From: Candidatus Methanomethylophilaceae archaeon
Lineage (GTDB): Archaea > Thermoplasmatota > Thermoplasmata > Methanomassiliicoccales > Methanomethylophilaceae
Assembly (NCBI GenBank): GCA_944320495.1
Contig: CALUHR010000013.1
Span: 1 to 64,000 of the forward strand
Direction of reading: 5' to 3'
Length of the DNA stretch: 64,000 bases
Part shown: one piece after another, positions 1,077 through 54,637 of the stretch
How the letters are laid out: each line of letters starts with the position of its first letter
How positions within the stretch are numbered: the first letter of the stretch is position 1
Notes under the pieces: generated by a model
Databases searched by the model: none
Told to the model about the DNA's origin: nothing
The model's input: the letters and a program-made list of their open reading frames with translations, nothing else
Translations under genes and position numbers: made by a program

Positions 1077-1133
1077 TATAATTCTGAATCGCCCGTTGAG
1101 AATGCTGTTACCGCCCAACGGATCGTATCGGGA

Positions 1134-2908: not shown

Positions 2909-2912
2909 CGTA

Positions 2913-3743
2913 TCACGAAACCTCGCCCTCGAAGACCAGCTCCGCCGGTCCCTCCATAAGGGCGTACTTGAGATCCTTGTCGATCGTTATCCTCAGCCAT
3001 CCGCCCGGGAGCTCCACGTCGACCGGCTCCCCGAAGGGTACGCGCCCGGTCAGGGCGGCCGCGGTCGTGGATGCGCACGCTCCGGTCCCGCAGGCCAGCG
3101 TCCATGCGGCGCCGCGCTCGTACACCCGGATGTGTATCTTGCCGTCCTCCACCCTGCAGAACTCCACGTTGGTCTTGCGGGGGAAGAAGGGATGGCGCTC
3201 CAGCACCGGGCCCAGCATGTCGATCTGGGCGTCGGTGAGCTCGGTGAACGTCACGAAGTGGGGGTTGCCCATGGACACCGCGCTGGCCCTGAGCTCGATT
3301 CCCTCGACGGTGAACGGCTGATCTATGAACTCGCCGTCATGGTCGATGGGCACGGTGCGGCCGTCGGTGATGGGCGCGCCCATGTTGATCCTCACGGTGG
3401 AAACCTTCCCGGAATCGTCGCGGAACGTCTCCGCCACCAGGTCGCCGGCCAGGGTGTGGATCCTGAACCTCTCGGCGCCCACGATGCCGTAGTCCCAGGC
3501 GTGCTTGGCGACGCAGCGGATGCCGTTGCCGCACATCTCCGCCTCGGTCCCGTCGGCGTTGATGATCCTCATGGTAATGTCGGTGCCCTCTCCGGGGAGC
3601 ACGTAGAGCACCCCGTCGGCCCCGATGCCGAAGTGGCGGTCGCACATGCGCCTGCACCACTCGGGGTCCACCGACAGCTTCCCGTCGGTGCCGTCCAGGA
3701 GGATGAAGTCGTTCCCCAGCCCCTGGTACTTCCAGAACCTCAT
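2913..3743 (-). CDS. dapF: Diaminopimelate epimerase
   Basis: MRFWKYQGLGNDF, EMCGNGIRC, MGNPH, ERGAAWTLACGTGAC. The ATG at 3743 overlaps the lysA stop (ATGA). Confidence 0.95.
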   Translation of the reverse strand: MRFWKYQGLGNDFILLDGTDGKLSVDPEWCRRMCDRHFGIGADGVLYVLPGEGTDITMRIINADGTEAEMCGNGIRCVAKHAWDYGIVGAERFRIHTLAGDLVAETFRDDSGKVSTVRINMGAPITDGRTVPIDHDGEFIDQPFTVEGIELRASAVSMGNPHFVTFTELTDAQIDMLGPVLERHPFFPRKTNVEFCRVEDGKIHIRVYERGAAWTLACGTGACASTTAAALTGRVPFGEPVDVELPGGWLRITIDKDLKYALMEGPAELVFEGEVS

Positions 3744-4996
3744 CTCAGCCTCTCCGGGACGATCTGGTGGCGCCAGACGTCCTCCATGGTCTCCGCTTCG
3801 CGGATGAGCTCGGCCTTGCCGTCGTTCACCAGGACCTCCGCGCACAGGGGGCGGGAGTTGTACCTGCTGGACATCGAGAACCCGTACGCGCCGGCGTCGT
3901 AGACGGCGACCAGGTCGCCGACCTGGGGGTCCGGGAGGACGCGGTCGTGTGCCAGGTAGTCGCCGGACTCGCAGATCGGTCCGACGACGTCGTACTTGCT
4001 GGTGCACGCCTTGCCCATCCTGTTGGCCAGAGCCACGTGGTGGTAGGAGTCGTACATGGTGGGCCTGACGAGGGTGTTGAATCCCGCGTCCACCCCGACG
4101 TACCTCTTCACGCCGGTGTCCTTGAGGTCGTTCACGCGGGTGAGCAGCACGGTGGAGTCGCAGACGATGTACCTGCCAGGCTCAAGCATGATTGTCCTGA
4201 CGTCGGTCTCCTCCTCGATCATGCTGGTGAGGTTGGAGGCGAGCTCCTCGACGTCCATCTCCTCCTCCTGGGGGCGGTAGGGCACGCCGATGCCGCCTCC
4301 CATGTCTATGAACTCCAGGTCTATGCCCAGGCCCTTGAGCTCGTTGACCAGCTCGATGAGGACCTCCATCATGTCCATGAAAGGCTCGACGACCTGTCCG
4401 CCGGAGCCGATGTGGGCGTGGATGCCCTTGATGTTGAATCCCAGGTCCTTGGCCCTGGCGTAGGTGTCGATCACCTGGTCCAGAGGGATGCCGAACTTGG
4501 CGCCCTTGTTGCCGGTGGTGACCTTGGCGCTGTGACCGGAGCCGACGCCGGGCGTGATCCTGAAAGAGACGTCGGAGCAGGGGGCGATCCTCGCCAGGCG
4601 CTCCATCTCGCACGCGGAGTCCAGGTTGATCATGACCCCCAGCTCGGAGACTGCCTTCAGCTCGGCGTCGGAGACGTTGACCCCTGTGTACATGATGCGG
4701 TCGGGGGTGAACCCGGCCTTCAGGCAGGACATGACCTCGCCGATGGAGACGGCGTCGATGCCGGCGCCCTCCTCCCTCAGGATGCTGAGGATGGCCAGGT
4801 TGGTGTTGGCCTTGCAGGCGTAGTGGACCCTGGTGTCCATGAACCTGGAGAATGCGCCGTGGATGCGGCGGTAGTTCTCCCTGACCCTCTGCTCGTCCGT
4901 CACGTAGACGGGCGTGCCGAACTCGTCGGCTATCTCGACGGCAGACTTGCCGCCGATGTACATGACCCCGTCCTTCGCGGGGAACTCGCGGAACAT
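3740..4996 (-). CDS. lysA: Diaminopimelate decarboxylase
   Basis: YACKAN, HIGS, DMGGG, EPGRYIV, GPICESGD and GAYGFSMSSRYN; start MFREFP at 4996. Confidence 0.95.
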   Translation of the reverse strand: MFREFPAKDGVMYIGGKSAVEIADEFGTPVYVTDEQRVRENYRRIHGAFSRFMDTRVHYACKANTNLAILSILREEGAGIDAVSIGEVMSCLKAGFTPDRIMYTGVNVSDAELKAVSELGVMINLDSACEMERLARIAPCSDVSFRITPGVGSGHSAKVTTGNKGAKFGIPLDQVIDTYARAKDLGFNIKGIHAHIGSGGQVVEPFMDMMEVLIELVNELKGLGIDLEFIDMGGGIGVPYRPQEEEMDVEELASNLTSMIEEETDVRTIMLEPGRYIVCDSTVLLTRVNDLKDTGVKRYVGVDAGFNTLVRPTMYDSYHHVALANRMGKACTSKYDVVGPICESGDYLAHDRVLPDPQVGDLVAVYDAGAYGFSMSSRYNSRPLCAEVLVNDGKAELIREAETMEDVWRHQIVPERLR

Positions 4997-6348
4997 CACT
5001 GACCACCTATGAACTTCTCGTGGAGCGTGCGCACCACGTCTATGACCTTGCTCATCGGGACGACGAAGTTGAGGGACACGTCGGACGCGCCCTCGGAGAT
5101 CATCTCCACATTGGCGTTGGCCTCCTTGACCGCGCCGAAGACGTCGCCGGAGACCCCGCACTTGTCCAGCAGGTTGTCCCCCACGGCGCAGATGAGCGCC
5201 ACGTCGTTCTTCACGTCGATCCTCTCGATGTCCCCTCCGGACAGGCCGTTCAGCTGCCTGAGGGTCATCTTCACGTCGTTGTTGTGGACGAGGAATGCGA
5301 CGGACGACAGGGTCGTGGATATGGAGTATATGATGACGTTGATCTCTGCGATCTTGTCGATGATGCGCGCCACCATGGCCGGGCGGTACGCGATCTCGGC
5401 GGAGCTTATGGTGATGATCGAGAGGTCCGTCTTGGCGGCGACGGAGCGGAGCATCTCGGCAGTGCTCTTCCTGAGGTGATGGATCAGGGTGCCGGGCTCC
5501 TCCGGCCTGAAGGAGTTCTTCACCTTCAGGGGGATGTGCTTGAGCCTCACGGGCTCGATGGTCCTCGGGTGGAGGACCTTGGCGCCGAAGTAGGCCAGCT
5601 CCGCGGCCTCCCCGAAGTTCATCTCCGGGATCTTCTTCGCACCGGCGACGATGCGGGGGTCGGCGGTCATGAACCCGTCGACGTCCGTCCAGATCTCCAG
5701 CATGTCGGCGTCGATGGCGTTGGCGACGACGGCCGCCGAGTAGTCGGATCCGCCGCGCCCGAAGGTCAGGGGGCCCTTGTTGGGGCCGACGCCGTAGAAT
5801 CCGGTGATGATGGGGACCACGCCCATGGACAGCAGGGGCTTGACCCTCATGGTCATGCCGGAGGCGGTGTTGAGCAGGTCCGCGGATCCGTTGCCGGGAG
5901 TGCCGAGAGCGATGATACCCACGTCCTCCGACGTCAGGGCCACGGATTTGATGCCCATGTCCCTCAGGACGAACGCGAGCATGAGCGAGGAGAACCTCTC
6001 GCCCTGGGAGACGACCGCGTCCTTGTAGAACGGGTCCTCGCGGTCCGCGAGGAGGGCGCTGCGGAAGCCCTCGATGCGGGAGTCGAACTCCGCGCGGAAC
6101 TCGGCCATCGTCTCGCCCTCGAAGAGCTGGGACGCGGCCATGAGGTGCTTGTTCGAGAATTCGGTCACGACGGACTCCACATCGGGATTCGCGCTGTCGG
6201 CGACGCTCACCAGGAAGTTCGTGATCCCCGACATGGCGGAGACCACGACGACCTTCTCGTCCTCCTTGTCGGCGATGATCTTGGCTACCCTCTTCAGGGC
6301 CTCGGCGGAGCCGACGCTCGTGCCGCCGAACTTCATGACTGTTATCAT
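4996..6348 (-). CDS. lysC: Aspartate kinase with C-terminal ACT domains
   Basis: MKFGGTSVG, VVSAMSG, GRGGSDYSA, TDVDG and YFGAKVLHP; start MITVMK at 6348. Confidence 0.95.
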   Translation of the reverse strand: MITVMKFGGTSVGSAEALKRVAKIIADKEDEKVVVVSAMSGITNFLVSVADSANPDVESVVTEFSNKHLMAASQLFEGETMAEFRAEFDSRIEGFRSALLADREDPFYKDAVVSQGERFSSLMLAFVLRDMGIKSVALTSEDVGIIALGTPGNGSADLLNTASGMTMRVKPLLSMGVVPIITGFYGVGPNKGPLTFGRGGSDYSAAVVANAIDADMLEIWTDVDGFMTADPRIVAGAKKIPEMNFGEAAELAYFGAKVLHPRTIEPVRLKHIPLKVKNSFRPEEPGTLIHHLRKSTAEMLRSVAAKTDLSIITISSAEIAYRPAMVARIIDKIAEINVIIYSISTTLSSVAFLVHNNDVKMTLRQLNGLSGGDIERIDVKNDVALICAVGDNLLDKCGVSGDVFGAVKEANANVEMISEGASDVSLNFVVPMSKVIDVVRTLHEKFIGGQ

Positions 6349-6371
6349 AGGTAGAACCTCCGGGACCGCCC

Positions 6372-7244
6372 TCAGGCGATGCCGATCCCCCTCAGGACCT
6401 GGTCGATCCTCTCCCTGCATCCCTCGCTCAGGGGGGTCAGCGGGAGCCTGGGCTCGCCGTTGCCGTATCCCATCCCGCCCATGACGTACTTGATGGGTAT
6501 CGGGTTGGACTCCTCGAAGAGGGCCGAGAAGAGCGGGAGGAGCTTGGACTGTATGGCGCGGGCGGACGAGACGTCCCCCGCCTTGGCGCTGCTCACCAGG
6601 TCGGACATGAGGGCGGGGCAGCAGTTGCTGGCCACCGAGATCACGCCGTCGCCTCCGAGACAGACGAGCGCGAGCGTGAGCGCATCGTCGCCGCTGAGGA
6701 CCTCGAAGCCCTCCGGCCTCCGCCTGAGGATGTCCTGGATCTGGGCCATGTTGCCGCTGGCCTCCTTGACGCCGGCGATGCCGTCGACCTCCGCGATGCG
6801 CATCAGCGTGTCGGAGGTGATGTTGATGCCCGTCCTCCCGGGGATGTTGTAGACGACCACGGGGATGTCGATGGCGTCAGCGACCGCCTCGAAGTGCCTG
6901 AAGAGGCCCTCCTGGGTCGGCTTGACGTAGTAGGGCGCGATGGAGAGGACCCCGTCGGCGCCTATGTCCTGGGCGCTACGGCTCAGGGCGACGGCCTCGC
7001 GGGTGCAGTTGCTCCCGGCCCCGGCCAGGACCTTCGCCTTCTTCGCCTGGTCCCTTACGATCTCGATCACGCGGAGGTGCTCCTCGTGGTCGAGGGTGGC
7101 GGACTCGCCGGTGCTCCCGCACGGCACGAGGACGTCCACCCCGTTGGATTCCTGGAAGTCGACGAGGCGCCTGAGCGCCTCCTCGTCGACGGAGCCGTCC
7201 TTGGCGAACGGCGTGATGAGTGCGGTTCCGGTTCCTGCGAACAT
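6372..7244 (-). CDS. dapA: 4-hydroxy-tetrahydrodipicolinate synthase
   Basis: GTALITPF, GSTGES, YNIPGRTG, GVKEASG, LSGDD and NPIPIK. Confidence 0.95.
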   Translation of the reverse strand: MFAGTGTALITPFAKDGSVDEEALRRLVDFQESNGVDVLVPCGSTGESATLDHEEHLRVIEIVRDQAKKAKVLAGAGSNCTREAVALSRSAQDIGADGVLSIAPYYVKPTQEGLFRHFEAVADAIDIPVVVYNIPGRTGINITSDTLMRIAEVDGIAGVKEASGNMAQIQDILRRRPEGFEVLSGDDALTLALVCLGGDGVISVASNCCPALMSDLVSSAKAGDVSSARAIQSKLLPLFSALFEESNPIPIKYVMGGMGYGNGEPRLPLTPLSEGCRERIDQVLRGIGIA

Positions 7245-7249
7245 CGTGA

Positions 7250-7672
7250 TCGTGCCTCCCCGTAATGCTCCTTCAGTATCAGCCTTGTCCTGGTGCTGAG
7301 GATGTTGTCGTACCGGCGGACCCTCTCGATGATCTCGTTGAGGTGCTGCGAGGACTCCACGTCGACGATCGCGATGATGTCCTGGTCGCCGGTGACCTCG
7401 AACACCTCGGTGACCCCGTCGTACCCGGCCAGCTCCCTGGCTATCTCCTGGGTGTCGGTGTTAACCGCGATGCTGATCTCCACCAGCGCCTTGACGTTCT
7501 TCGAGCTCGTCTTGATGGTGAACCCGCGTATGATGCCCTCCTCGACCATCTTGTGGACCCTGCTGCGCACGGTCCCCTCAGATACGCCGAGCTGGTTGGC
7601 TATCTCGACGAACGGACATCTCGAGTCCTTCTTCAGCAGCTCTATGATCTTCTTGTCGAGGTTGTCAATCAT
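7250..7672 (-). CDS. Lrp/AsnC-family transcriptional regulator heading the lysine operon
   Basis: LDKKIIELLKKDSRCPFVEIANQLGVSEGTVRSRV HTH plus a RAM domain (VFEVTGDQD). The first CGA (7252-7250) gives 140 aa ending 5 nt before the dapA ATG. The standard code extends 61 codons to 7067, into dapA. Confidence 0.9.
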
Positions 7673-7820
7673 ATCGATCACCCGGGCTCCGCCTGATGGT
7701 CCGAGTGAAGTGCGCCACGATATTAAATCTATGGGAAAACGCGGTCCGACGGGCGTTATCCGCAGTGGTCGGACCGCCGCCGGCGGGATGCGATGCCCGC
7801 CGGCTGCGAAATTCGCAGAA

Positions 7821-9446
7821 TCACGATGCGTCCGCCCCGCCGTCCCCGTGACGGTAGTCCATGGGGTCGGTGAGGATGTCCACCTGTATCCTGCTGTAGG
7901 GGATCTCGATGCCGTCGTCGTTGAGCTGCCTGTAGACGAGCTCGCGGATCTGCCCGGCGTAGTGCGCGCTGTTGTTGAAGTCGTCCACATAGCAGGCTAG
8001 GCGGAACTTGATGCCCGACCCGGCGAACTCCACGAGCCTGGCGTTGGGAGGGATGCAGGACCCGTCGGTGATGACATGGGGATGCTTCCTGCCGGCGGTC
8101 TCCAGGGACGCCTTAGCCCTGTCCAGGTCCGTGCCGTAGGCGACATCGACGTAGATGAAGATCCTGGTCCTGTTGAAGTCCACGGAGGACAGGTTGACCA
8201 GGGTGGCCGAGGACACGGCGTTGTTCGGCATCGTCACCACGCGGTCGAAGTCCCAGTTCTCCAGCTCGGTGTACATGAGCCTGACCCTGCGGACCCTGTA
8301 GGTGGTGTCGTTGATCTGGATGAAGTCGCCCTTCTTGAACGGGCGCGAGGCCAGGAGCACGATGCCGCTGAAGAACTGGTTGAGGGTCTCCTGCGCTCCG
8401 AGCGTTATGCCCAGGGTGACCACTCCGGCGCTGACCATGATGCCGGCGAAGTCCACGCCGAAGGCCGACAGTGCCGCGCACAACGCGACCACGCAGATCA
8501 CCAGCTTCCCGATCATCTTGAGCAGCGGGAGCAGGGACATGTCGACGCCGTCCACATCGGCGGCCTCATCGATGCCCTTCAGGAAGGCCGTCACGATGAA
8601 CAGGTAGACCATCCATGCTATCAGCGAGCCGACCACCACGTAGACGACCATGGACAGGGCCCCGATGAAGTGGGCTATCCCTGCGTTGGCCCCGACGATC
8701 TGCACGCACTCGTTGATGGCTATGACGAACATGACCACGGTGATCATGGACGTCAGACGCTTGGTGAGGGACCTCTTCTCCTCCTGGGTCTTCCTAGCCC
8801 CGACGAGGCGGGTGAACAGCGGGATGATGATCTCGGACATTATCACCGTGGCGATGATCCAGATGATCAGGGTCGCCAGAGCTGTCACCCACACCGAGTT
8901 GAACGGGGCGTCCAGCGTGTTGGGGAACACGCCGAAGAACTTGTTATAGGCGTCCCCGGTGGCGAAGACTGAGGTGACCCCCACGGTGATCGGACATGCG
9001 ATCTCGACCCCGCCGTCGTCGTCACCGATGCTGTTGGCCAGCAGAGTGACCGTGCCGACGGCGGTCTTGTTGTCCGAGTAGGCGTCGGCCGAGACGGTGA
9101 TCTCGATTATCGCCATGTTGCCGTCGTGTCCGGCCGGCATGAGGACCCCGGAATCCGGATTGGCCGAATCCAGGACGGTTATCTTGGTGGAAACCGATAT
9201 GGAATCGCCCAGATTCGACACGGAATCCACCGAGAGGGCTACCGGCGTGTCGCCATTGTTGGTCACATAGAGGTTCACGGTCTTGCTGGTCCCGCTGTCC
9301 AGCGTCAGCGAGAGATCGTTCCCGTCGATCGTGTCGATGTGGAGATCCCCTTCGGCCAGGGCCTCGGACTGCGGAGCCGCGGAAGCCGCGATGACCGCCA
9401 CGAGGACGAGCAATGCCGAGAGGAGCGTGAGCCTCCTTGCGTTCAT
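7821..9446 (-). CDS. mscS: MscS-family mechanosensitive channel with signal peptide and extracellular N-terminal domain
   Basis: C-terminal MscS core (GLTLGAQETL-like TM3 ITLGAQETLNQFFSG, RPFKKGDFI, MPNNAV, VDVAYGTD). N-terminal hydrophobic leader followed by a beta-rich acidic segment. Confidence 0.85.
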   Translation of the reverse strand: MNARRLTLLSALLVLVAVIAASAAPQSEALAEGDLHIDTIDGNDLSLTLDSGTSKTVNLYVTNNGDTPVALSVDSVSNLGDSISVSTKITVLDSANPDSGVLMPAGHDGNMAIIEITVSADAYSDNKTAVGTVTLLANSIGDDDGGVEIACPITVGVTSVFATGDAYNKFFGVFPNTLDAPFNSVWVTALATLIIWIIATVIMSEIIIPLFTRLVGARKTQEEKRSLTKRLTSMITVVMFVIAINECVQIVGANAGIAHFIGALSMVVYVVVGSLIAWMVYLFIVTAFLKGIDEAADVDGVDMSLLPLLKMIGKLVICVVALCAALSAFGVDFAGIMVSAGVVTLGITLGAQETLNQFFSGIVLLASRPFKKGDFIQINDTTYRVRRVRLMYTELENWDFDRVVTMPNNAVSSATLVNLSSVDFNRTRIFIYVDVAYGTDLDRAKASLETAGRKHPHVITDGSCIPPNARLVEFAGSGIKFRLACYVDDFNNSAHYAGQIRELVYRQLNDDGIEIPYSRIQVDILTDPMDYRHGDGGADAS

Positions 9447-9556
9447 GTAGCGTCGATTTCCGCATCGTATTTAAAATTAAGAAAAGGGAGACACGCGAAC
9501 CGCGCAGCACTGACGCACCCCGCAACGCTTATCAGCCCGCGGCCCGAGCACCGACC

Positions 9557-10393
9557 ATGGAACCGGAGGGCATCATCGGACTGCTGCAGACGTTTGTCGT
9601 CCTGACCGTCATGGCCTCCGGGGCCGTCTGCGACTCGAGGACCAGACGCGTCCCCGACGCGCACTGGCTCATCCTGTGCGTCACCGGGATCCCCCTGGCG
9701 GCCACCGGGATCGGGATCGGAGGCGGCCCCTGGGCGGGGGTGCTCTACGCCGCCGGCGGCCTCCTGCTCTCATGGTACATGCTGTCCGGAAGGCTGATCG
9801 GACCGACCGCCGCGCCGGTGGTGGCAGCGGGGTTCGCGATGATGGCCCTGCCGGTCCTGACCTCCGGGATCGCTGACGGGATCATCTCCGCCGCGATGTT
9901 CGCCATGTGCGTCCTCCTCCACAGATGCGGGCTTCTCACCGGAGGGGCGGACGCCAAATGCGCGATGACGCTGGCACTCGTCCTACCTTCTCTACCGGAG
10001 ACGTCGGTCGTCCCGCTGCTGTGGCACGGCTCGGCGCTGCCCCCCGTGCTGTCCGTCCTACTGCTGGCACTGGCGATCTCCCTCGCCGGGTCGCTGTGGA
10101 TAATGGCCCTGAACATCCGCGCAGGCTATACCGGAAAGGGGATGCTCACGACGTTGGAGACGGATGTAGGATCCATGGACCCGGACTTCCACTGGCCCGT
10201 CCAGAGGCCTGTGGGAGGGGATCTCGTCGGATGCAGGGGATCGCCCGGGACCGCGGCGGACATCATCCGCGAATTGCAGAATGCCGGGATCGCGAGGGCA
10301 CGCGCCGAGCTCCCGGTGCCGTTCGTCGCACCGATGTTCCTGGCACTCGCCCTGGTGCTGATCCTCGGGGACCCCGTCGGCGCACTATGCCGA
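9557..10393 (+). CDS. A24-family prepilin/preflagellin peptidase-like membrane protein
   Basis: AVCDSRTRRVPD, TGGADAK and C-terminal PVPFVAPMFLAL. Ends GDPVGALC then CGA at 10391-10393; standard end is 10468. Confidence 0.75.
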
Positions 10394-11390
10394 GGTCGAA
10401 CCCGCAGTTGGAGCACCTGGAACCGTCCAGCTCGGATGCGTCGACCGAAAACCCGAACCTGCGTATGACCGGCCTGCCGCACCTCGGACAGAAGGTGTCC
10501 CCCGGCCCTTCTGCGATGATGTTGCCGACGTAGACGAAGTTCAGACCCTCCTCGATGCCTATCTCCCTGCACCTGAGCACCGTCTCAACGGGCGTCCACG
10601 GGACGTCGGTCAGCTTGTAGTCCGGATGGAACCTGGTGAAATGGACGGGCACATCGGACGAGAGCTCCGACGCCACCCACGAGCAGAACGCACGCACCTC
10701 GTCCTCTGAGTCGTTGAGCCCCGGGATCACCAGGTACGTGAGCTCGAGATGCACCCCCTCGGAGAACACGATGCGGACCGAGTCCAGGACGTCCCGGAGA
10801 TGGGCACCGCACTCCCGCGTGTAGAACTCCTCGGTGAACCCCTTGACATCGATGTTCATGGCGTCCGCGATATGACATAGATCCCTGAGGAGGGCCTCGC
10901 ACGCCAGCCCGTTGGTCACCAGGACGATGCGTATGTCCGGGTCCACGGCGGCCACGTCGCGGATGTACTCGTACCAGATCATCGGTTCGTTGTATGTGAA
11001 CGCGATGACGCCCAGGCCCTCGCGCCTGCAGTGGGCCACCAGATCCTCCGGCGACACGTAGGTGGACCTCCTCCTGCCGGTCGGTATCGATGAAATCGCG
11101 AAGTTCTGGCAGTGGAGGCAGCGCATGTTGCACCCGGCGCCGCCTATGGACAGGCATCTCTTCCCGGGCATGTAGTTGTAGAGGGGCTTCTTCTCCATCG
11201 GGTCCACGCACATCGACGTGACCTTCCCGTAGCTGGACGCGAACAGCGTCCCGCCCTCGGCCCTGCGGGCCATGCAGCGCCCGGTCTGTCCCTCACCGAT
11301 CCTGCAGTGGTGCGGGCACAGGCCGCAGACGAAGACGTCGCCGTCCCTCTCGCAGTAAGCGGCCTCGATGCGCGGATCGGTATTCACCAT
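10377..11390 (-). CDS. amrS: AmmeMemoRadiSam-system radical SAM enzyme (PFL-activase-like)
   Basis: CGLCPHHC N-terminus, VDPMEKKPLY, CNMRCLHC radical SAM motif, FTYNEP, C-terminal CPRC...CSNC. Ends CGFDLGIVR then CGA (10379-10377); standard end is 10263. Confidence 0.85.
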
Positions 11391-12309
11391 AGGGGATCAC
11401 CGTCCTCTCGCCCCCGTCGATCAGGTGGGGTGCGCCGGTGTCGTTGACTATCCCGATGATCGAGAATGGCACCTCGGCCTCGTAGAGCCTGTCGAGCCCG
11501 TCCTGGGGCGCGGTGAAGACGAGCTCGTACTCCCCTCCCCAGCCCAGGAGCAGGTCCCTGACGTCCCTGCCGGACGCCTCGGCCATCTCATCGACCGACG
11601 GCCCCCTCGGTACGAACGACAGCTCCACCTCCATGCCCACGCCGGAGGCGGTGCATATGGTGTTCAGCGCCGTGCCGAGCCCGTCGGACAGGTCCATGCA
11701 CGACGTGACCACCCCCGTCGCGGCCATCGCCTCCCCCTCGGCCACCCTCGGGACCGGGACGTAGAGCTGGTTCCTGGCGTCCTCGGCATCGATGCCGAGC
11801 TCCAGCGAGACGAATCCCGCCGCCGGGCCGCCGACCGGCCCGGTCACTGCGACGAAGTCTCCCGGCCTGGCGCCGGAGCGGAGCATCGGCCTCCTGCCGT
11901 CCATGGATCCGAGCGCGGTCGTCGTGACCACCCCGGGACCCACCTTGGTGTCCCCACCGGCGATCCCGGTGCCGCAGAACTCGGCGCACTGGCTTATCCC
12001 ACTCATTATGTCATACGCGGCCTGGACGTCCAGGTCGCCCGGGAGGACCAGCGACGCCAGTATCCCCGTGGGGCGCGCGCCCATCGCCGCGAGGTCACTG
12101 AAGCTGACCGCCGCGGAATACCAGCCGAACTGCTCGTACGTCATGCCGGCGGGCATATGCCTGTCGAAGGTCACGGCGTCCGTGGAGACCACGACGCCCT
12201 TGCCGAGCACCGCGGCGTCGTCGCCGGGGCCGACCTCGCCCTCCCGGGCTATGAACGTCCCGAAGTCCTCTATGAGCTGCCTCTCGCCGATCTCTCCGAT
12301 CAGGGTCAT
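11377..12309 (-). CDS. thiL: Thiamine-monophosphate kinase
   Basis: GERQLI, GDDAA, SDLAAMGARP, GGDT, MDLSDGL and GGEYELVFT. The first CGA at 11379-11377 gives a 14-nt overlap with the amrS start; standard end is 11293. Confidence 0.9.
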
Positions 12310-12389: not shown

Positions 12390-14027
12390 TCATGCCTTGT
12401 TTAGTTCTTTGGCTTCTTTAAGATCAATTCTAGCCCTATAACCATGCTTCTGAAGCAGATACAGCAGTTCTGCACCATTGAGAAGAGTCAGAGGCTTGTC
12501 TTTGGCAAAATTGTAAGCATCGTTTCCGTAGTTTGAGGTTGTTACAAGAATTCCCTTTGTTGCACCCTCGTTCATCACCGTACCATACAGATCTCTTACT
12601 GCCGATACTCCGACCACGTTCGTGTACCTCTTTGCCTGAATGACAATCTTGCCACCACGTATCGGATCCGGGTCGAATGCCACTGCGTCTACACCACCAT
12701 CGCGACTGGCTTGTGTGATCTTAACCTCACCACCATTTGAACTGAACTCTTTCTCGAAGATTTCTCTGATGAGATTCTCGAAATCTTGCCAGTCAATTGC
12801 TGCTAGATTCACACTGTCATCGATTGTATCTACGACATTATAGCCATCTATGAATCTCTTATCCTCGCGAGACATTGTGATCAAAGGTGCTACAGGTGTG
12901 ACATTGGCCAGAGAAGCTGCGGACACGCCCTTGGAACTCTTGAACCATGCCTTAGGGTCAACAGATGAAAGGTTCACCTCTTCGAATGACTCGCGAGATA
13001 CATTAACTGAGAGGACATATGGTTCGATTTCCTTCCCAGTAGACTTGTCGATCGTACTGACTCTTCCATTGATTACGATAGCAGAGACGGGACAGTTAAG
13101 TTCTAGACTGAAAACGAAGTTGATACATTGGAGTACCATCTGGTAGATTACACTATCATACTTCTTTTTCAGATACGATTCTGCGAAATGAGTTTCCTTG
13201 AACTCATTTCTTGACTTGACGTAGGTTACAGCCTTCAATGTCGGAATATCTTCCAACTTTGGAAGCATATAATCTACAATCACGAGGTCTGTTTCAGGAT
13301 TGTATTCCACCTCAATCAGTTTATCGTAACTGAATGGGAGTGCGAGTCTCTCAATCGCCTCCCTGACATACCATTCAACAGAGGGTACATCACCAGATTG
13401 AACCTTCTGATAGAGAGCATCGATTTTTGAGTTCTCTGAATCACGAACTCTCTCGAACTCATTCTTCCTTTGCTCCCAGTTTGCTACTTCCTTGTTGTAA
13501 GCGTCTTGTGCGACCTTATTGTTATGTGTAACGCGATCGCATTCTCTTTTCCAAATTTCATAGTCTGATTTATAAGCAAGGTTGTCAGACTCTGTCAATT
13601 CGGCCATCTTTTTCTTTGATAGTTTGGCAAACAAAGTTGGCTGTGAATTGTACTTGGAAGACTTCTTATCAGGCTCAATCGGAAGTTTCTCGAACACTGG
13701 CCTAGAAGGGGAAGGTTCTTCGAACTCTGAGAAATCCTTGAACTCGTTGATAGTGAATTGGTGAGAGCCCAGATTATCCAGAAGAATCCTGTCCATTGCT
13801 TCCTGAACTTCTTCTGCCTGTGTTGTAATTTCTTTGGCATAGGCTATGGAGTCGGCTTCATCGCGAATCTTTGCTTCACGTGCTTGCTTTTTCTCCCACT
13901 GTTCGTCCCACTGATCTTTCAGAGCGCGTACCTTCTGATCCAGCTCATATTGAGTTGCTGCCTTGACTATGCGATATTTATGCAACCCCTCATGTGAAAC
14001 TTCAGCTTGGTATGGGTATGTCACCAA
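12390..14027 (-). CDS. Mrr-family (type IV-like) restriction endonuclease with long N-terminal coiled-coil region
   Basis: C-terminal Mrr_cat: WQDFENLIREIF, ASRDGGVD, IQAKRY, VGVSAVRDLYG, GILVTTS and LLNGAEL. Markedly more AT-rich than the flanks. Confidence 0.85.
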   Translation of the reverse strand: MVTYPYQAEVSHEGLHKYRIVKAATQYELDQKVRALKDQWDEQWEKKQAREAKIRDEADSIAYAKEITTQAEEVQEAMDRILLDNLGSHQFTINEFKDFSEFEEPSPSRPVFEKLPIEPDKKSSKYNSQPTLFAKLSKKKMAELTESDNLAYKSDYEIWKRECDRVTHNNKVAQDAYNKEVANWEQRKNEFERVRDSENSKIDALYQKVQSGDVPSVEWYVREAIERLALPFSYDKLIEVEYNPETDLVIVDYMLPKLEDIPTLKAVTYVKSRNEFKETHFAESYLKKKYDSVIYQMVLQCINFVFSLELNCPVSAIVINGRVSTIDKSTGKEIEPYVLSVNVSRESFEEVNLSSVDPKAWFKSSKGVSAASLANVTPVAPLITMSREDKRFIDGYNVVDTIDDSVNLAAIDWQDFENLIREIFEKEFSSNGGEVKITQASRDGGVDAVAFDPDPIRGGKIVIQAKRYTNVVGVSAVRDLYGTVMNEGATKGILVTTSNYGNDAYNFAKDKPLTLLNGAELLYLLQKHGYRARIDLKEAKELNKA

Positions 14028-14583: not shown

Positions 14584-15033
14584 ATGAGGAGCGCCGAGCT
14601 CGCCAGGGGGAGGGTCTTCATCCTGCGCCTGGAGGACGGCGAGGTCCTCCGCGAAACCATAGAATCATTCTGCAGGGACAACGGCATAGCTCGCGCCCTG
14701 GTGCACGTCACCGGCGCCGTGGATGAGGGGTCCCGCATGGTCAGCGGCCCGAGGGTCCCCGTGGGGGACAGGGTCGAGCCCATCGTCATCGAGCTGGAGG
14801 ACCGGTGCGAGGTCACCGGGCACGGCACCGTGTTCCCAGATGCGGACGGCAACCCGCTGCTCCATCTCCACGGCTCCGTCGGGAGGGAGGGGTTCTGCGC
14901 CACTGGCGACTTCGGCCCCGGGATGGTGTCCTGGCTCGTGATGGAGGTGCTCATAGAGGAGCTGGTCGGCGACGGCCCTGTCAGGGAGGAGTCCGACCCC
15001 AGGATAAGCGGTAAACTTCTGGAGATGAGACGA
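14584..15033 (+). CDS. PPC/DUF296-domain protein
   Basis: RVFILRLEDGE, GHGTV and PLLHLHGSVG. Ends KLLEMR then CGA at 15031-15033, overlapping the next ATG by 1 nt; standard end is 15147. Confidence 0.8.
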
Positions 15034-16595
15034 TGGCATCCGAGGAGATACTCAGGAAGACGATCCACAACGCGGACGGCAAGCCCTTCGCCAAATACAG
15101 GAACATACAGGGCTCCTTCGTCACCGAGGGCTTCGAGCTCTTCATAGACGAGGTCCAGGGGGACCGCATGGGGCACTCCAGGATGAGGGTCCGCGTCCCC
15201 ATGAAGAGGGCCGGATTCCCAGAGGACACCCGTTCCAACGCGTCGCGCAGAGCGGCCCTCGGCGACATCATAGCCAGGAGGTTCTGGGAGTCGGCCAGGA
15301 CGCACGCCCGCTCCAACATCCCCAAGACCGACGGGGGCGTCGTCTACATGCCCCGCCCCGGCCAGGAGATCCTCGACCGCGGTAGCGTGGAGGTCACGGA
15401 GCACTACGTGGAGGCGCGCTTCACAGCCGACCTCCCCTCGAAGGCCAACAAGGTCGACGAGGAGTCCGCCATCGACCTCATCTTCGGGAGGATCTCACTG
15501 ATCGTCTCCGAATCCATGCTGTTCGCCTCCTACAAGAGACAGAAGCTCTACAACCACCTGGAGACCGCCGAGAACGCGGACTCCATCAGGTCCAGGCTCC
15601 CGGAGCTGGGCCTCGCCGCATTCGTCGGCATCGGCTCGATCCTGCCACGCAGGGACGACGGCCTCGCCCCCATGACCGACGCGGTCCCTTTCGACTGCGA
15701 CGACTCCCTCAAGGTGACCGTCGAGGTCCCCAACGGCGACCCCGTCACCGGCATGGGCATACCGATCGGGTTCACCACGGTCTCCGGACCCAGCGGGTCC
15801 GGGAAGTCCGTCCTCGCGGACTCCGTGTTCGCCGGCATCTACGACCACATCCCGGGAGACGGGAGGGAGCTCGTGATCTCCGACCCTGACGCCGTGTACG
15901 TGATGACCGAGGCCGGCAGGCCCTACGAATCCGTGAGGCTCACGGGACCAGCCTCCGAGATGGAATCCGTGGACGAGGCGGTAGGATGCGGATCACATCT
16001 CATCATCATGGACGAGGAGTACTCGTGCCCGTGCGTCCTGCGCAGGTCGGTCATCTCCGGCGACGACGACGTGGTCCCCGTCTCGGAGACCGCCGGCTCC
16101 CTCGGCCGCTCCGGGATCTCGGTGCTCATGGTCACCGGGGACGGCGACGCCGTCTCCAGAGCGGGGCTCGCCCTGTCCATGGACGGGTACAGGGTCGGGA
16201 GACTCGACGTCGAGTGTCGTGAAGGGTCGGAGTTCCCGATCCCCCAGGGGCGCTACCCAGTTGCGAAGAACGTCTCCTTCGAGAAGGGCAGGAAGGAGGT
16301 CAGCACCTCCGCCCCCGAGATCCGCACCGTAGAGATCGGAGAATACAGGGTGACGGCTCCCGTCGCAGGGTTCTTCGACCACGCCCAGACCAGGACAGTG
16401 GCGGACGCGATAGCCCTGGCCCGTGAATCGATGGACGGCTCGAAGGATCTCAGGACCGTCTGCGGGGATGCTCTGGCGATGCTGAGGGAGAAGGACGCAT
16501 CCGAGGGCACCGGCATGGCCCATGCGCAGGCCAGGGCCGTGGACATGGCCGCGGTGCTGCTGAGGCACCCTCAGATGCTGTTCATAAGGCGCTGA
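15033..16595 (+). CDS. ABC-class ATPase-domain protein (COG3044-like)
   Basis: N-terminus resembling the family (IDEVQGD, PGQEILDR, VEARFT), Walker A-like GPSGSGKS, HIPGDGRE and Walker B-like IIMDEE. Confidence 0.7.
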   Translation: MASEEILRKTIHNADGKPFAKYRNIQGSFVTEGFELFIDEVQGDRMGHSRMRVRVPMKRAGFPEDTRSNASRRAALGDIIARRFWESARTHARSNIPKTDGGVVYMPRPGQEILDRGSVEVTEHYVEARFTADLPSKANKVDEESAIDLIFGRISLIVSESMLFASYKRQKLYNHLETAENADSIRSRLPELGLAAFVGIGSILPRRDDGLAPMTDAVPFDCDDSLKVTVEVPNGDPVTGMGIPIGFTTVSGPSGSGKSVLADSVFAGIYDHIPGDGRELVISDPDAVYVMTEAGRPYESVRLTGPASEMESVDEAVGCGSHLIIMDEEYSCPCVLRRSVISGDDDVVPVSETAGSLGRSGISVLMVTGDGDAVSRAGLALSMDGYRVGRLDVECREGSEFPIPQGRYPVAKNVSFEKGRKEVSTSAPEIRTVEIGEYRVTAPVAGFFDHAQTRTVADAIALARESMDGSKDLRTVCGDALAMLREKDASEGTGMAHAQARAVDMAAVLLRHPQMLFIRR

Positions 16596-38831: not shown

Positions 38832-40156
38832 GCCACATGACATCCATCATCAGGAAGGAGGTCAGGGAGATGCTGACCCCGGGCTCCGTCATATCCGTGC
38901 TCGTGATGGTCATCATATTCGCGGGCATGGGAGGACTCATCGGCACGGAGGTCGACAAGGCGGCAGAGCTGCCGAGCTTCGGCCTCGTGGCCGAGGAAGG
39001 CGACTACCTGGAAGGCTGGGACCTCATCGGCACCCTCCAGGGATACTACGGCGACGAGTCCGACAAGATCGTCATCATGGACGCCGCCTACGGGGATGAC
39101 GAGGCGATCATGGCCGAGATGGAATCTCGCGGCATCGCCAACGTCCTCGCGTTCCCGGACAAATCGACCTTCGAGGCATGCATAGCCGGTTCGGAGCAGA
39201 TCACCGTAGAGCAGTACTACCTCTACGAGCCCACCGGCATGTTCGGCACCATATCGTCAACTGTCATGTCCTCGATCGTCTCACTCGTCGAGGGCAGCCT
39301 CACGCAGGAGCTCATATCCCTCTCCGGGGACGGCGGAGCGAACATCAACTACATCATGGACCCGATGTACACCGGCGGGGACTCGGTCAGCACCGTCATC
39401 GACGGAGTGGCCCACTCCGGGGTCACCCCCTCGGACATCGACACCGAGATCTCCAGCCAGACCATGATGATCCCGCTGGTCATCATGATCATCATCATGA
39501 TGGTCGGGAGCATCGTCATCAGCTCCATCGGTTCGGAGAAGGAGAACAAGACCCTGGAGACGCTCCTCACCATGCCGATCAAGAGGACGTCCATCGTCAG
39601 CGGGAAGATCGCCGCGGCAGCCATCGTGGGACTCGTCTACGGCCTCGCCTACATGGTCGGCATGAGCATCTACATGGGTGCGATGACGGGCGTCGTCGGC
39701 TCCGGCCAGGGAACCGACCTGGAGAGCCTCGGGCTGGCGCTCGACGTGGGAGACTGGGCCCTCGTGATGGTGTCCATGTTCCTGTCCATCGTCTGCGCCC
39801 TGGGCATCTGCATGATCCTGGGTGCCTTCGCCAAGAACTACAAGTCCGCCCAGACCATGACCCTGCCCATCAGTATCCTGGCCATGATCCCGATGTTCGT
39901 GATCATGTTCTCCGGATGGTACGGATGCGGAGGGTTCCTTCAGGCGATCCTGTTCGTCATCCCGTTCTCGCACCCGATGATGGCCATGCAGGCCCTCATG
40001 TACGGGGACATCACCCTGGTGCTCGGCGGGATCGGGTACATGGCCGTGTTCGCCATCGTGACCATACTGATCACGGTGAGGATGTACAACTCCGACATCC
40101 TCATCACCGGCCTGGGCCAGAACAAGTGGGTCCAGACCCTCACCGGGAGGAAGCGA
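38828..40156 (+). CDS. ABC-2 type permease (NatB-like)
   Basis: IIRKEVRE, EKENKTLETLLTMP, SGKI, multiple TMs and IPFSHP. Ends TLTGRK then CGA at 40154-40156, 1 nt before the next TTG; standard end is 40360. Confidence 0.88.
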
Positions 40157-42292: not shown

Positions 42293-42871
42293 ATGTCGAT
42301 ACGGGAGGACATGGAGCTTCGCAGACTCAGGGAGAGCTTCTTGGAGGGGCCGTCCGTCGACCGCGACGGCTATGAATACTTCGTCAACCCGCTCTCCGAC
42401 GGCCTCCCCCGCGTGGACAGGGAGCTGCTGGACGAGGCGGTGTCAGGCATCCTGGAGGTCGCGGAGCTGGACTGCGATGTGATCCTCGCCCCGGAGGCCA
42501 TGGCCCTGCCGATAGCCGCTGGGATCACACTGAGGACCGGCATCCCCTATCTGGCGATACGCAAGCGCCCGTACGGGCTCCCCGGCGAGATCTCGTTCGG
42601 GAAGCGCACAGGGTACTCCGAATCGATGATGCACGTCTCGACGCTGAGACCGGGCGAGAGGGTGGCGATCGTGGACGACGTCCTCGACACGGGCGGGACT
42701 GCGAGGGCCACCGTGGACGCGCTCCGCGGGGCTGGGATCGTCGTCACGGAGATCGTGGCCGTATTCGACCGCAATCCCGACAGCGACGCCCTGTCCGCCG
42801 AGCTCGGGGTGCCCATCAGGACGCTGCTGAGGGTGGGCGTCGAGGACGGAGGGCTCATCGTCAGGGATCGA
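42293..42871 (+). CDS. hpt: Hypoxanthine/guanine phosphoribosyltransferase (archaeal)
   Basis: YEYFVNPLSDG, EAMALP, IRKRPYG and IVDDVLDTGGT. Ends GGLIVRD then CGA at 42869-42871; standard end is 43066, inside the next gene. Alternative start at 42311. Confidence 0.85.
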
Positions 42872-42948: not shown

Positions 42949-44217
42949 ATGGACCCCTCCCTGCTGGCAGTATGTCTCGCGATGTCCGCGGTCGGATGCG
43001 CACTGGGCCTGTTCAGCGGCCTCGTCCCAGGGATACACGTCAACACGCTGGCGGCTATGCTGCTGACCGCATACCCTGCCCTAGAGGCCGCGCTGCCGCT
43101 GGGAGAGACGGAGGCGGCCGTCGCCGTGGGATGCTGCGTGATGGCGGCCTCCGTGGTCCATTCCTTCGTAGACTTCGTGCCCTCGGTCTTCATAGGGGCG
43201 CCGGATGCGGAGGACGCCGTCTCAGTGCTCCCCGGACACCGTCTGCTCCTGGCCGGGAGGGGCATGGAGGCCGTCCGTGCGGCGGCCGTCGGAAGCCTGG
43301 TCGGATGCTCCGCCTCGCTGCTGCTGGCACTTCCCCTCCAATGGGCCCTCATTCACGGTGCGGAGGGACTGCTGGACCTCCTGACGCCTGCTGTGCTTAT
43401 GCTGGCGTGCGCTGTCCTGCTCTCGTCCGAGTGGCGCAGAGGGAACGGCCTGTGGGGTCCCGCCCTGATGCTCCTCTCCGGAACCCTCGGGCTGGGCTGT
43501 ATGGTGCTGCCGATACCCATGGACGGCGTGCTGGGGGAGGGGAGCGTCATGATGCCCCTCCTCACCGGGCTGTTCGGGGTGCCCGTGCTGCTGGAGACCG
43601 GCAGGGCATCCAAGATACCTCCGCAGAAGGACATCGTCTCGGATCCCGTGGGGGTGCGCCCGGGGCTCCGCGGCGTCCTGATGGGGGCCGTCGCCGGATG
43701 GTTCCCCGGGATCACGTCCACCGTCGGGGCATCGATGTCCGCCGCGGTGCTGCCCGAGAGGGGCCCGGCGAGATTCATCTCCACGGTCGCCTCGATAGGC
43801 ACCGTCACGTCTGTGCTGGCACTTGTCACCCTGTCCGTCTCGGGGAACGGCAGGTCGGGGACCGCCCTGGTCATCGGGGACATATTGGAGGGGTCCCTCG
43901 GCGGGTTCGCCTCGGGTCCGTTCCTGATGCTGCTGCTATCCGCGGCGGTGGCATCGCTCGCGGGATACTGGCTCACGATAGCCAGCGGAAAACTTCTGTC
44001 CCGCACCGTCGGCAGGATCGACCCACTGAGGCTCAGCAGGGCGATGCTGGCTCTCCTGACGGCGCTGACGTTCGCCCTGAACGGCCCGGCTAGCCTGCTG
44101 GTCCTCGTCTCAGCCACGGCCGTCGGGCTGCTGCCCGGGATGTGCGGCACCGGGAGGGTCATCCTCTGCGGAAGCCTGATACTCCCGGTGCTCGCGTTCA
44201 AGCTGGGTCTCGCCCGA
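42949..44217 (+). CDS. TctA-like (tripartite tricarboxylate transporter family) integral membrane protein
   Basis: GLVPGIHVNT, HSFVDFVPSVFIGAP, VLPGHRLLLAGRG and PLLTGLFG. Ends AFKLGLA then CGA at 44215-44217, abutting the thioesterase stop; standard end is 44829, which would span the whole thioesterase gene and enter the helicase gene. Confidence 0.82.
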
Positions 44218-50675: not shown

Positions 50676-51014
50676 TCGCACCAGGCGCGAGCGGACCATG
50701 TCCTGATAGGCCGCGCCCCAGAGGTCCAGCTCCTCCAGGACCGGGAGGACGGACATGCCGACGCTCGTAAGCGAGTACTCGACGCGCTGGGGCGAGTCGC
50801 AGACCACAGTGCGACTGATCAGACCGTCGGACTCCAACTCCCTCAGGGTTATCGTGAGCATGCGCGACGACCCCTCCCCAGTGAACCGCTTGAGCTCGTT
50901 GAAGCGCATCCGCCCATGGGAGGACAGCATCCACAGGACGAGGATCTTGTGCTTGCCGCCGAGGAGCCTTATCGTGGTGGCGAACGGGGTCTCCCCCTCG
51001 GGTATCGGGTCCAT
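50676..51014 (-). CDS. HxlR-family transcriptional regulator
   Basis: LLGGKHK, RFNEL, MLTITLRELESDGLISR and RVEYSLT. The first CGA (50678-50676) gives 112 aa; the standard code gives 176 aa (to 50484). Confidence 0.87.
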
Positions 51015-52199: not shown

Positions 52200-52418
52200 A
52201 TGGCCAAGACAACGATCAAGATCGAGGGAATGATGTGCGAGGGCTGCGTGAAGAGCGTCAGAGAGTCCCTCGAGAAGGTGCCCGGCGTCAAGAGCGTCGA
52301 TGTCAACCTGAAGAAGGGCACGGCCGTTGTCCAACAGGACGGCGTGGCCGACGAGGCCCTGATCAAGGCGGTCGTCGACGCGGGCTTCCGCGGAACCGTT
52401 AAGCACGGGCTCTTCCGA
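52200..52418 (+). CDS. copZ: Heavy-metal (copper) chaperone, CopZ-like
   Basis: [13 protein letters not shown] motif. Ends HGLF, then CGA (52416-52418, overlapping the copA ATG), then TGA (52419-52421). Confidence 0.88.
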
Positions 52419-54637
52419 TGAGGACCCGCATATTCCGCGTGGGCGGCATGACATGCGCCGCCTGCGCCAACCGCATCAACACGGCAGTGGAGGCGCTCGA
52501 CGGCGTCCAATCGTGCAACGCCAACATAGGCAACAACACGGCCACCGTGGTATACGACGACTCCGCCATCACAGAGGATACGATTGCGCAGGCCATCATC
52601 GGGGCCGGGTACCAGGTCATCAGCGACGACCGTACCGAAGCCGACAAAGCCGAGCTCAGGGACCTGGCGGTCCGCAGGCGCGACCTGGTACTTGCGATAG
52701 CGTTCGCCGTCCCACTTAGCGTGGTGGCCATGGGCCACATGTTCGGCCTGGACATCGGATTGGAGCCCCTGGCCCTCTGCGCCCTGCAGATCATCCTTCT
52801 GATACCGATACTCTATGCCGGCAGGCGCTTCTTCAGGAAGGGCTACCCGGCGCTCCTCTCCAAGAGCCCCACGATGGACTCGCTCGTATCACTCGGATGC
52901 ACGGCGTCCGTGCTGATGGGGCTCTGGTCCACCTACGAGGTCTGGAACGGGGATGCGTCGGCGGTCCACTCGCTGAGCTTCGACTCTGCGGGCATGATTC
53001 TGGCGCTGGTCAGCATCGGGAAGTACCTGGAGGCGCGCTCCAAGTACAGGACCAACGACTCGCTGAGGAAGCTCCTGGAGATGGCCCCCGACGAGGCCAC
53101 CGTCATCCGCGACGGTACCGAGTCCAGGATACCGTCGTCCGAGCTCGCGATGGGCGACATCGTCCTTATAAGACCAGGCGAAAGGGTGCCGACCGACGCC
53201 ACCGTCATCGATGGGCAGTCGTCCGTCAACGAATCCATGCTCACGGGCGAGAGCATCCCCGTGACCAAGGGCCCCGGCGATATCGTCTACGGGGCGACCG
53301 TGAACGGATCCGGAAGCCTGAGGGCGAAGGTGGAGAGGATCGGCGAGGACACCGTCCTGTTCCAGATAGCCCGCATGATGGAGATGGCCCAGGGGACCAA
53401 GGCTCCCGTGGCCAACATAGCCGACCGCGTGGCCGCCGTGTTCGTGCCGGCGGTCATCGTCATAGCCGCCCTCGCCTGCATCGGTTGGCTGCTGGCCGGC
53501 AGGGGCCCGGAGTTCTCACTCACGATCGCCGTGTCCGTCCTCGTCATCTCGTGCCCGTGCGCCCTCGGCCTGGCCACACCGCTGGCGATAGTCGTCGGCA
53601 CGGGATTGGGGTCCAGGCATGGGATACTCTACAAGACTGCGGCCGCCCTGGAATCCGCCGCCAGGATCGACACCGTCATCCTGGACAAGACGGGTACATG
53701 CACCGTCGGCCGCCCGGAGGTCGTGGAGGTCAGCACATCCATGGACGCGGCGAGGTTCGTGTCCATCGTCGCAGCGGCTGAGACGGACTCGGAGCATCCG
53801 CTCGGAGAGGCCGTGGTGGCATATGCCGCATCAAAGGACATCGCGGTGCCGGAGCACGCCGGGTTCGAGAGCGTCACCGGAGGCGGGGTCAGATGCACCG
53901 TGGACGGGTCCAGGGTCCTCGTCGGGAGCGCGTCCTTCCTCTCGGAGGAGGGCGTGGACATCCCCGAAGGCGCTGACGCCGGAGCATCCGAGGGGCGCAC
54001 CTGCATCCTGGCGGCTATCGACGGCGAATATCGCGGGACCATCTCCATCATGGACCCGGCAAGGGAGGAGAGCCCCTCGGCCGTGGCGGCGCTCAAGGCC
54101 GACGGCATCCGCGTGATGATGGTCACCGGGGACCGCAGGAGCACAGCCGAGCACATCGCCGGCGAGCTAGGCATCGACGATGTCAGGGCGGAGACGAGGC
54201 CCGGCGACAAGCTGGAGATAGTCAAGGAGCTCCAGGTCGCCCAGCGCAGGGTCGCCATGACCGGAGACGGGATCAACGACGCGCCGGCGCTCACCCAGTC
54301 TGACCTGGGCATCGCCGTCGGTTCCGGGACGGACATAGCCATGGAGTCGGCGGACGTCATTCTGATGAACGACGACCTCCGCAGCGTCCCGGCCTCGCTG
54401 GAGATCGGCCGCGCCACTCTTCGCAACATCAAGCAGAACCTGTTCTTCGCATTCTGCTACAACGCGGTGTGCATCCCGATAGCCGCCGGCCTACCGGTCC
54501 TCCTAGGCTACGACGGACTCGTGGACCAGATGCCGATGATATCGGCGGCGGCCATGTCGCTGTCCTCGATATCCGTCGTCACGAACGCCATGAGGCTCAG
54601 GGGCTTCAGGCCCGCCGCCCTAGACGGGCGGAGGTGA
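52418..54637 (+). CDS. copA: Copper-translocating P1B-type ATPase
   Basis: [48 protein letters not shown] and MSLSS. Confidence 0.93.

Follow-up and report, generated by a model that had tools for sequence, protein, structure and literature searches.

Codons with a sense meaning in the standard code are known to end genes in organelles, where AGA and AGG in vertebrate mitochondria, UCA in Scenedesmus and UUA in Thraustochytrium mitochondria serve as stops (NCBI translation tables 2, 22 and 23). Among prokaryotes, CGG is described as unassigned in Mycoplasma capricolum (Oba et al. 1991, as cited in PMC8629427), and for two archaeal assemblies from hydrothermal vents, whose recognisable domains lack CGA, a stop was raised as a possibility without a test (bioRxiv 10.64898/2026.04.02.715157). 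Codetta-type screens are unable to infer stops (PMC8629427), and our literature search returned no established description of CGA as a stop codon in Methanomassiliicoccales. Here we analysed a stretch of 64,000 nucleotides (the window; positions 1 to 64,000 of contig CALUHR010000013.1) from a Candidatus Methanomethylophilaceae archaeon, a gut methanogen of a Methanoprimaticola-type genus, whose assembly (G000, the window being G000:C13:1-64000) comprises 1.77 Mb with 62% GC, starting from the junction between a PCC-domain gene and an ABC-class ATPase gene. Taken together, the genomic evidence makes it likely that an in-frame CGA ends translation in this organism as TGA does, acting as a leaky fourth stop codon, and that the sequence CGATG at gene junctions would be the CGA version of the TGATG stop/start overlap.

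The CGATG junction between the PCC-domain and ATPase genes

The PCC-domain gene (14584..15033, + strand) comprises 149 codons and ends at CGA at 15031-15033, with PF03479 matching residues 10-128 over profile positions 1-116 of 117. As the initial annotation had described, AGA (15028-15030) and CGA (15031-15033) lie in frame with the open reading frame (ORF) starting at 14584, and the final A of the CGA is at the same time the first base of the ATPase ATG (15033-15035), resulting in the CGATG overlap at 15031..15035 (+). A Shine-Dalgarno (SD)-like GGAG (15021..15024, +) is located 8 nt 5' of this ATG, with CTGGAG conserved in the orthologous junctions, and the ATPase gene itself (15033..16595, +; 520 aa, TGA end) matches Pfam ABC_N and ABC_ATPase and begins with a MASE start conserved in nine relatives. 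Under translation table 11 the PCC frame runs on for 37 codons into the ATPase gene, to 15147 (187 versus 149 aa), and this Arg/Ser/Pro-rich tail showed no family match among the Pfam and NCBIfam profiles.

The same gene pair is present at nine related loci, and a search with the ATPase protein retrieved relatives from Methanomassiliicoccales, one record being that of Candidatus Methanoprimaticola sp. MG2. Four relatives besides the window keep the CGATG in the form CTG GAG NNN NNN CGA TG, while one (G066, locus L010) reads ATA CGC TGA TG, a canonical overlap with TGA exactly at the CGA codon. Two further relatives (G059, L009, and the genome at L008) read CGC TGA C ATG, again with TGA at the CGA codon, and at the last two of the nine loci TGA lies one codon earlier in one and three codons later in the other. 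Since the junction of these relatives is an ordinary TGATG or TGA-N-ATG, the CGA of the window occupies the stop slot, and the most fitting interpretation of 15031-15035 is a stop/start overlap whose CGA would end the PCC-domain gene.

CGA at junctions and gene ends across the genome

Every NNATG in the genome was scored for 30 upstream codons coding in the NNA frame together with 30 codons after the ATG coding in the ATG frame, and the sites were then sorted by the distance to the next standard stop. A coding frame opens downstream at 59 of the 89 in-frame CGA+TG sites with coding sequence upstream, compared with 56 of 107 TGATG sites and a single TAATG. Of the 59, 17 are CGATGA, close to the one in four that chance would give for an A following the ATG. 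The other 42 lack an adjacent stop, and 26 junctions run for more than 15 codons before a standard stop is reached. Sense NNA codons reach such junctions almost only as the four-base NNATGA overlap; after removal of these overlaps the 13 sense NNA codons pooled account for 55 of 2320 sites versus 42 of 89 for CGA (odds ratio 37, Fisher p = 1.5e-38), and the junction rates of CGA and TGA do not differ (p = 0.57). The initial annotation, which had proposed that CGATG mimics the TGATG overlap, had named two measures of this, the genome-wide number of CGATG relative to TGATG and TAATG and the enrichment of CGA over other NNA codons at downstream ATGs; the counts of 59, 56 and 1 are strongly positive on the first, and the enrichment is large, CGA behaving as TGA does and not as the 13 sense NNA codons do. 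Within the window alone there are three CGATG junctions and two to three TGATG junctions.

Moreover, an SD-like motif 4-18 nt 5' of the ATG was found at 50 of 59 CGATG (85%), 40 of 56 TGATG (71%) and 130 of 190 ATGA junctions, compared with 26% of the ATG triplets inside genes. In build and in frequency, CGATG junctions thus match canonical coupling overlaps. At the PCC/ATPase junction, a ribosome finishing the PCC-domain gene would terminate on CGA and could restart on the overlapping ATPase ATG, aided by the GGAG 8 nt upstream.

The distribution of CGA along genes points in the same direction. In 1096 ORFs with a high GC content at third codon positions (GC3), in-frame CGAs number 4-5 per decile in the ORF centre and 234 in the last decile. 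In 179 of these ORFs (16%) a CGA lies in the last 60%, with the coding log-odds falling from +1.09 before to -0.57 after it, and a comparable coding drop was absent at all 17 other rare codons tested. In a gene-end census that counted CGA among the stops and screened out antisense shadow frames by requiring GC at first codon positions to exceed GC at second positions (GC1 > GC2), we obtained 1451 gene ends, comprising 1038 TGA, 351 CGA, 46 TAA and 16 TAG; the 24% share of CGA may be inflated, the gene set being our own approximation from codon log-odds and GC-frame filters, and a stricter count gives 16%. The coding log-odds change from +1.11 to -0.68 across CGA ends and from +1.32 to -0.76 across TGA ends.

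Among individual genes, Pelota (G000:C1:20925-23502, +) ends at CGA (codon 433), exactly at the end of its eRF1_3 domain, and table 11 fuses it in frame with the next gene, which is isopropylmalate/homocitrate-synthase-like. In the window, 13 genes end at CGA. In eight of them the match to a Pfam or NCBIfam profile stops at the CGA or slightly ahead of it, the tails beyond CGA in these eight match no Pfam or NCBIfam profile, and the table-11 tails run for up to 203 codons across neighbouring genes. On the plus strand, an archaeal hypoxanthine/guanine phosphoribosyltransferase (CGA 42869..42871) has 192 codons versus 257 under table 11, with NCBIfam positions 3-185 of 188 covering residues 10-192; a TctA-family transporter (CGA 44215..44217) has 422 versus 626 codons, with Pfam TctA positions 1-419 of 423 covering residues 10-404; and an ABC-2 permease (CGA 40154..40156) has 442 versus 510, with Pfam ABC2_membrane_3 matched over positions 4-346 of 347 and ending at residue 417. 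On the minus strand, thiL (CGA 11377..11379) has 310 codons versus 338, TIGR01379 ending at residue 301 and profile position 306 of 320, and profile matches likewise support the ends of an AmmeMemoRadiSam radical SAM gene (CGA 10377..10379; 337 versus 375 codons) and of an HxlR-type regulator (CGA 50676..50678; 112 versus 176 codons).

The remaining two junctions put forward by the initial annotation are likewise present in the sequence as described, but each calls for a caveat. For the copZ-like gene (52200..52421, +) and the P-type ATPase gene copA (52418..54637, +; ATG 52418-52420), the letters are as it gave them, TTC-CGA at 52413-52418 overlapping the copA ATG, but it had not mentioned the TGA at 52419-52421. 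With TGA directly after the CGA, this is an ordinary four-base ATGA overlap and no CGATG example. Across 30 members of the genus, the codon before the copZ TGA is mostly TCA (Ser), GGA (Gly) in three and CGA in seven, and TGA always comes next. The CGA thus stands in the last sense slot, where it does not discriminate between the readings, and after this orthologue comparison copZ/copA was dropped as evidence for a CGA stop. A CGA tolerated only where stopping one codon early is harmless is consistent with CGA as a stop.

At the second junction, a Lrp/LysM-type regulator gene (7250..7672, -) of 140 codons, versus 201 under table 11, ends at CGA (7252..7250), and a second in-frame CGA two codons on (7244..7246, -) overlaps the ATG of dapA (6372..7244), so that the minus strand reads GCA-CGA-TCA-CGA-TG. 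TGA in two relatives (G046 and G069) aligns with the first CGA, and a third (G043) has CGA-TAA. Because the TGA of the relatives aligns there and the NCBIfam LysM profile (positions 1-135 of 136, residues 2-135) ends at residue 135 of 140, the first CGA is the primary stop slot. The sequence before dapA was quoted correctly in the initial annotation, with the role of the stop shifting from the CGA touching the ATG to the one upstream.

These observations bear directly on one alternative, in which the standard code holds, CGA is a rare Arg codon, the genes carry C-terminal extensions, and CGATG reflects coincidental overlaps or assembly errors. The existence of a tRNA(UCG), the alignment of a CGA at codon 78 of the release factor gene aRF1 with a conserved Arg (see below), and the copZ/copA junction, which needs no new stop, all fit such a view. 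It is contradicted by tails which are non-coding in their statistics, lack family matches and extend for up to 203 codons across neighbours, by the 37-fold enrichment (odds ratio) of CGATG over sense NNA, and by the recurrence of the same pattern in dozens of independent assemblies. We consider the standard-code explanation strongly disfavoured and assign it a nearly negligible probability.

Several further features were noted in the window and in the census. The convergent window genes at 9548-10393 (+) and 10377-11396 (-) both have CGA ends (10391-10393 and 10379..10377) and overlap by 17 nt. A 545-codon ORF at 12390-14027 (-) has a GC3 of 0.45 in a stretch of 54% GC, compared with a GC3 near 0.9 in its neighbours, and may be foreign DNA. 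The window also encodes a tRNA-Ser(GCT) at 989-1076 (+) and an intron-containing tRNA-Tyr(GTA) at 59181-59292 (+), the latter found only with introns allowed. In the census, 306 apparent TAG ends with continuing coding were rejected because they stem from the antisense shadow frame, rich in GC3, where NNC-TAY gives rise to TAG; the GC1 > GC2 filter removed them. TAG itself is almost unused as an end (16 of 1451), and coding continues past it in nine of these 16, as expected for pyrrolysine-containing methyltransferase genes; read-through-like examples are found at C13:283389-283836, C13:128267-129086 and C3:62624-64667.

CGA in relatives, its tRNA and the release factor

Comparing 20-kb stretches syntenic with the window in 20 members of the genus, we observed that CGA and TGA interchange at offset 0 and in both directions, TGA-ended genes of G000 ending at CGA elsewhere, and that no in-frame CGA occurs inside the 750-5400 aligned codons per genome. 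Between 0/21 and 9/21 gene ends are CGA in individual members of the genus. In a wider sample, genus members contain 0-2 in-frame CGAs per 2500-11000 aligned codons. The outgroup families f2-f7 of the order use CGA for Arg, as do three genera within the window's own family (g15, g18, g20), with 5-26 per approximately 3000 aligned codons, mostly aligned with R, and in genera g10-g14, g16, g17 and g19 CGA is essentially lost. Dozens of genomes from independent assemblies, some of them single contigs, repeat this pattern. That CGA occupies a functional stop slot, as the initial annotation had argued from the overlaps, is supported by the junction enrichment, with which the end of the coding signal, the profile ends and the TGA of orthologues agree.

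The alternation between CGA and TGA raises the question of mRNA editing, because C-to-U conversion at CGA sites would restore the standard stop UGA. Editing of CGA to UGA that creates stops occurs in plant organelles, and the alternation at the same sites among relatives resembles that between edited and pre-edited plant sites. The avoidance of CGA is, however, frame-specific: NCG is followed by A in 24-25% of cases, compared with 25-29% for NCC and 27% overall. As out-of-frame CGA is not depleted, an editor would have to discern the frame or target hundreds of sites one by one. Frame-blind C-to-U editing was rejected on the undepleted out-of-frame NCG|A, an argument that does not extend to site-specific editing. 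We know of no mRNA C-to-U editing in archaea, and we regard editing of any kind as very improbable here.

Regarding the history of the codon, gene ends in G091 and G108 were assessed by orthology to G000 proteins. In 200 kb of G091 (genus g10), which we take to be Methanomethylophilus alvus Mx1201, there are 2 CGAs in 46,646 aligned codons, and none of 133 gene ends is CGA. These data, together with the distribution across genera, suggest that CGA was first lost from genes across much of the family and was then regained as a gene end in the genus of the window. The CGATG junctions would have arisen from TGATG by a T-to-C change, after CGA had gone from gene bodies. At one junction in G091 (L053) and in G117 (L054; g10, presumably ISO4-H5), CGA alone separates two in-frame genes, presumably cmk and cbf5, judging by the gene order usual in archaea; the next standard stop follows 330 codons on, and the G000 orthologue has TAA five codons later. 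CGA may serve here as a rare stop in Methanomethylophilus, or the two genes may form a fusion by read-through.

The tRNA repertoire gives a hint as to why a CGA stop might be leaky. G000 has a gene for tRNA(UCG) (C13:413317-413390), and 16 other genus or family genomes, i.e., all that were looked at, have kept it, so CGA is not a codon without a cognate tRNA. Nor have the codon and its tRNA both been lost, as codon capture would have it, the tRNA being kept and CGA being abundant at gene ends. Within the genus, four upper pairs of the anticodon stem of tRNA(UCG) covary, and position 31:39 is always non-Watson-Crick (A.A, C.A or U.C) or else the loop is CCUCGAC, whereas the stem has five pairs in g10 (Methanomethylophilus) and in five outgroups. 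The loop CCUCGAC, which has C in place of the near-universal U33, occurs in the complete genomes G008 (L082) and G015 (L088). Since tRNA(UCG) is retained and about ten in-frame CGAs in G000 are followed by continuing coding sequence, CGA is not a pure stop; the retained tRNA-Arg(UCG) with its unusual anticodon arm may compete with release and thereby make the stop leaky.

In addition, a single in-frame CGA occurs in the gene for the release factor aRF1 (G000:C2:85936-87165, -); it is codon 78, which corresponds to the invariant Arg in SI(A/M/L)x-R-LK. The 13 further members of the genus that were sampled all have CGA at this codon, with synonymous changes in the codons nearby. The other CGA-depleted genera also have one aRF1 CGA each, at codon 25 (g10, g11, g12, g14), codon 11 (g13, g17), codon 50 (g16) or codon 327 (g19), compared with 0-5 scattered CGAs in the aRF1 of lineages with CGA as a sense codon (loci L046-L078). 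In the genus of the window the aRF1 CGA is always followed by C; T stands at position +4 of 58% of CGA stops versus 30% of TGA stops. An in-frame CGA at a conserved Arg of aRF1 could let the cell tune aRF1 output to its termination capacity. The single aRF1 is assumed to be the factor recognising CGA.

Like the retained tRNA and the aRF1 CGA, further regularities of CGA ends point to a leaky stop. Of the CGA stops without an overlapping ATG, 20% are followed by CGATCG, a palindrome that contains CGA in either strand, and another CGA turns up within six codons of a CGA stop about twice as often as it does within six codons of a TGA stop. CGA ends 6% of the genes in the top quintile of codon bias and 40% in the bottom quintile (p = 9e-29).

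Some of our results count against CGA as a stop read by aRF1, or set limits to it. The tRNA(UCG) gene of G000 looks foldable, and the approximately ten CGAs within continuing coding sequence show that the codon is not confined to gene ends. In the N domain of aRF1 no residue separates CGA-depleted from CGA-sense lineages, NIKS and YxCxxxF being intact, so the recognition of CGA by aRF1 is an assumption. The next standard stop is no closer after CGA than after TGA (median 28 versus 29 codons, p = 0.47), the CGA share depends on the approximate gene set described above, and the case for termination at CGA is built from DNA sequence, just as translational coupling at CGATG is proposed from the anatomy of the overlap and its SD-like motif. 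The only two aRF1 columns that do discriminate are positions of the C-terminal domain and were not taken as diagnostic, phylogeny being their probable cause. Residue 28 of the G000 aRF1 carries a private substitution, GRSTEL versus G(R/K/W)GTEL in all others sampled, in the loop equivalent to the eukaryotic GTS loop.

Another explanation is that CGA is effectively unassigned, a hungry codon at which a scarce or detuned tRNA(UCG) stalls the ribosome until rescue factors or slow non-cognate release free the chain; CGATG would then work because the stalled ribosome sits on the next start. The lack of a diagnostic change in the aRF1 N domain is in line with this, as are the 31:39 mismatch or CCUCGAC loop in all tRNA(UCG) of the genus that were seen, the concentration of CGA ends in weakly codon-biased genes, and the near-loss of CGA without stop use in M. 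alvus (G091), which resembles an unassigned stage. One fifth of the genes, Pelota included, would however need rescue in every round of translation, and to our knowledge Pelota lacks a GGQ peptide-release motif. The single conserved CGA of aRF1, found at at least five separate positions, moreover ties the codon specifically to the release factor. An unassigned CGA therefore appears unlikely to us, although it deserves more weight than editing or the standard code. On balance, we lean towards CGA as a true fourth stop, read by aRF1 against a deliberately weakened tRNA-Arg(UCG), with the CGA in aRF1 acting as a feedback sensor and the CGATG junctions as sites of termination and reinitiation.

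Significance and comparison with known systems

If CGA ends translation, these archaea offer a natural system with living intermediates of a change in codon meaning in one family. Its precursor stage, in which CGA is lost and one aRF1 CGA is kept, would then be seen in most of the family, the cultured Methanomethylophilus alvus among them. Confirmed at the bench, it would be the first sense-to-stop code change outside organelles, in a free-living organism. In practical terms, annotation with table 11 would over-extend or fuse approximately one fifth of the genes in these genomes, those of human and animal gut methanogens included. How relatives decode their genes is of practical interest as well, since they are the source of PylRS/tRNA-Pyl pairs for genetic code expansion. 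The CGATG junctions indicate that a new stop may have been absorbed into ordinary operon architecture, which is in itself evidence that CGA works efficiently enough where termination and restart are linked.

Compared with canonical TGATG and ATGA overlaps, the CGATG junctions are alike in the one-base overlap of A and ATG, the upstream SD-like motif, the count (59 versus 56) and the orthologous TGATG of G066. They differ in the terminating triplet, CGA being a sense codon in every published prokaryotic code. As CGA cannot make the four-base ATGA overlap, CGATG is its only compact form.

In bacteria, the release factor gene prfB contains an in-frame UGA and autoregulates through a +1 frameshift. 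The aRF1 gene likewise holds one in-frame copy of the gene-ending codon, conserved in the genus; unlike prfB, it needs no frameshift, and passage would occur through decoding by tRNA-Arg(UCG) at a conserved Arg, with regulation of aRF1 output as the proposed consequence.

With codon capture, as represented by CGG in Mycoplasma capricolum, the family shares the vanishing of a CGN Arg codon, and most Methanomethylophilaceae genera, including M. alvus, resemble that stage. In the genus of the window, by contrast, CGA has returned in numbers at the stop slot and the tRNA has been kept. The vent archaea (bioRxiv 10.64898/2026.04.02.715157) belong to an unrelated lineage in which tRNA(UCG) is absent and CGG is reassigned to Trp, whereas tRNA(UCG) is present here; the stop was a suggestion only in that case and is backed here by orthology and junction statistics. 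Finally, the organelle codes are similar in that a standard-sense codon stands at the stop slot and is gone from gene bodies, but the present case concerns a free-living archaeon with approximately 1500 genes and hundreds of such stops, a different codon, CGA, whose cognate tRNA is retained, and an apparently dual meaning, with CGA as Arg inside aRF1.

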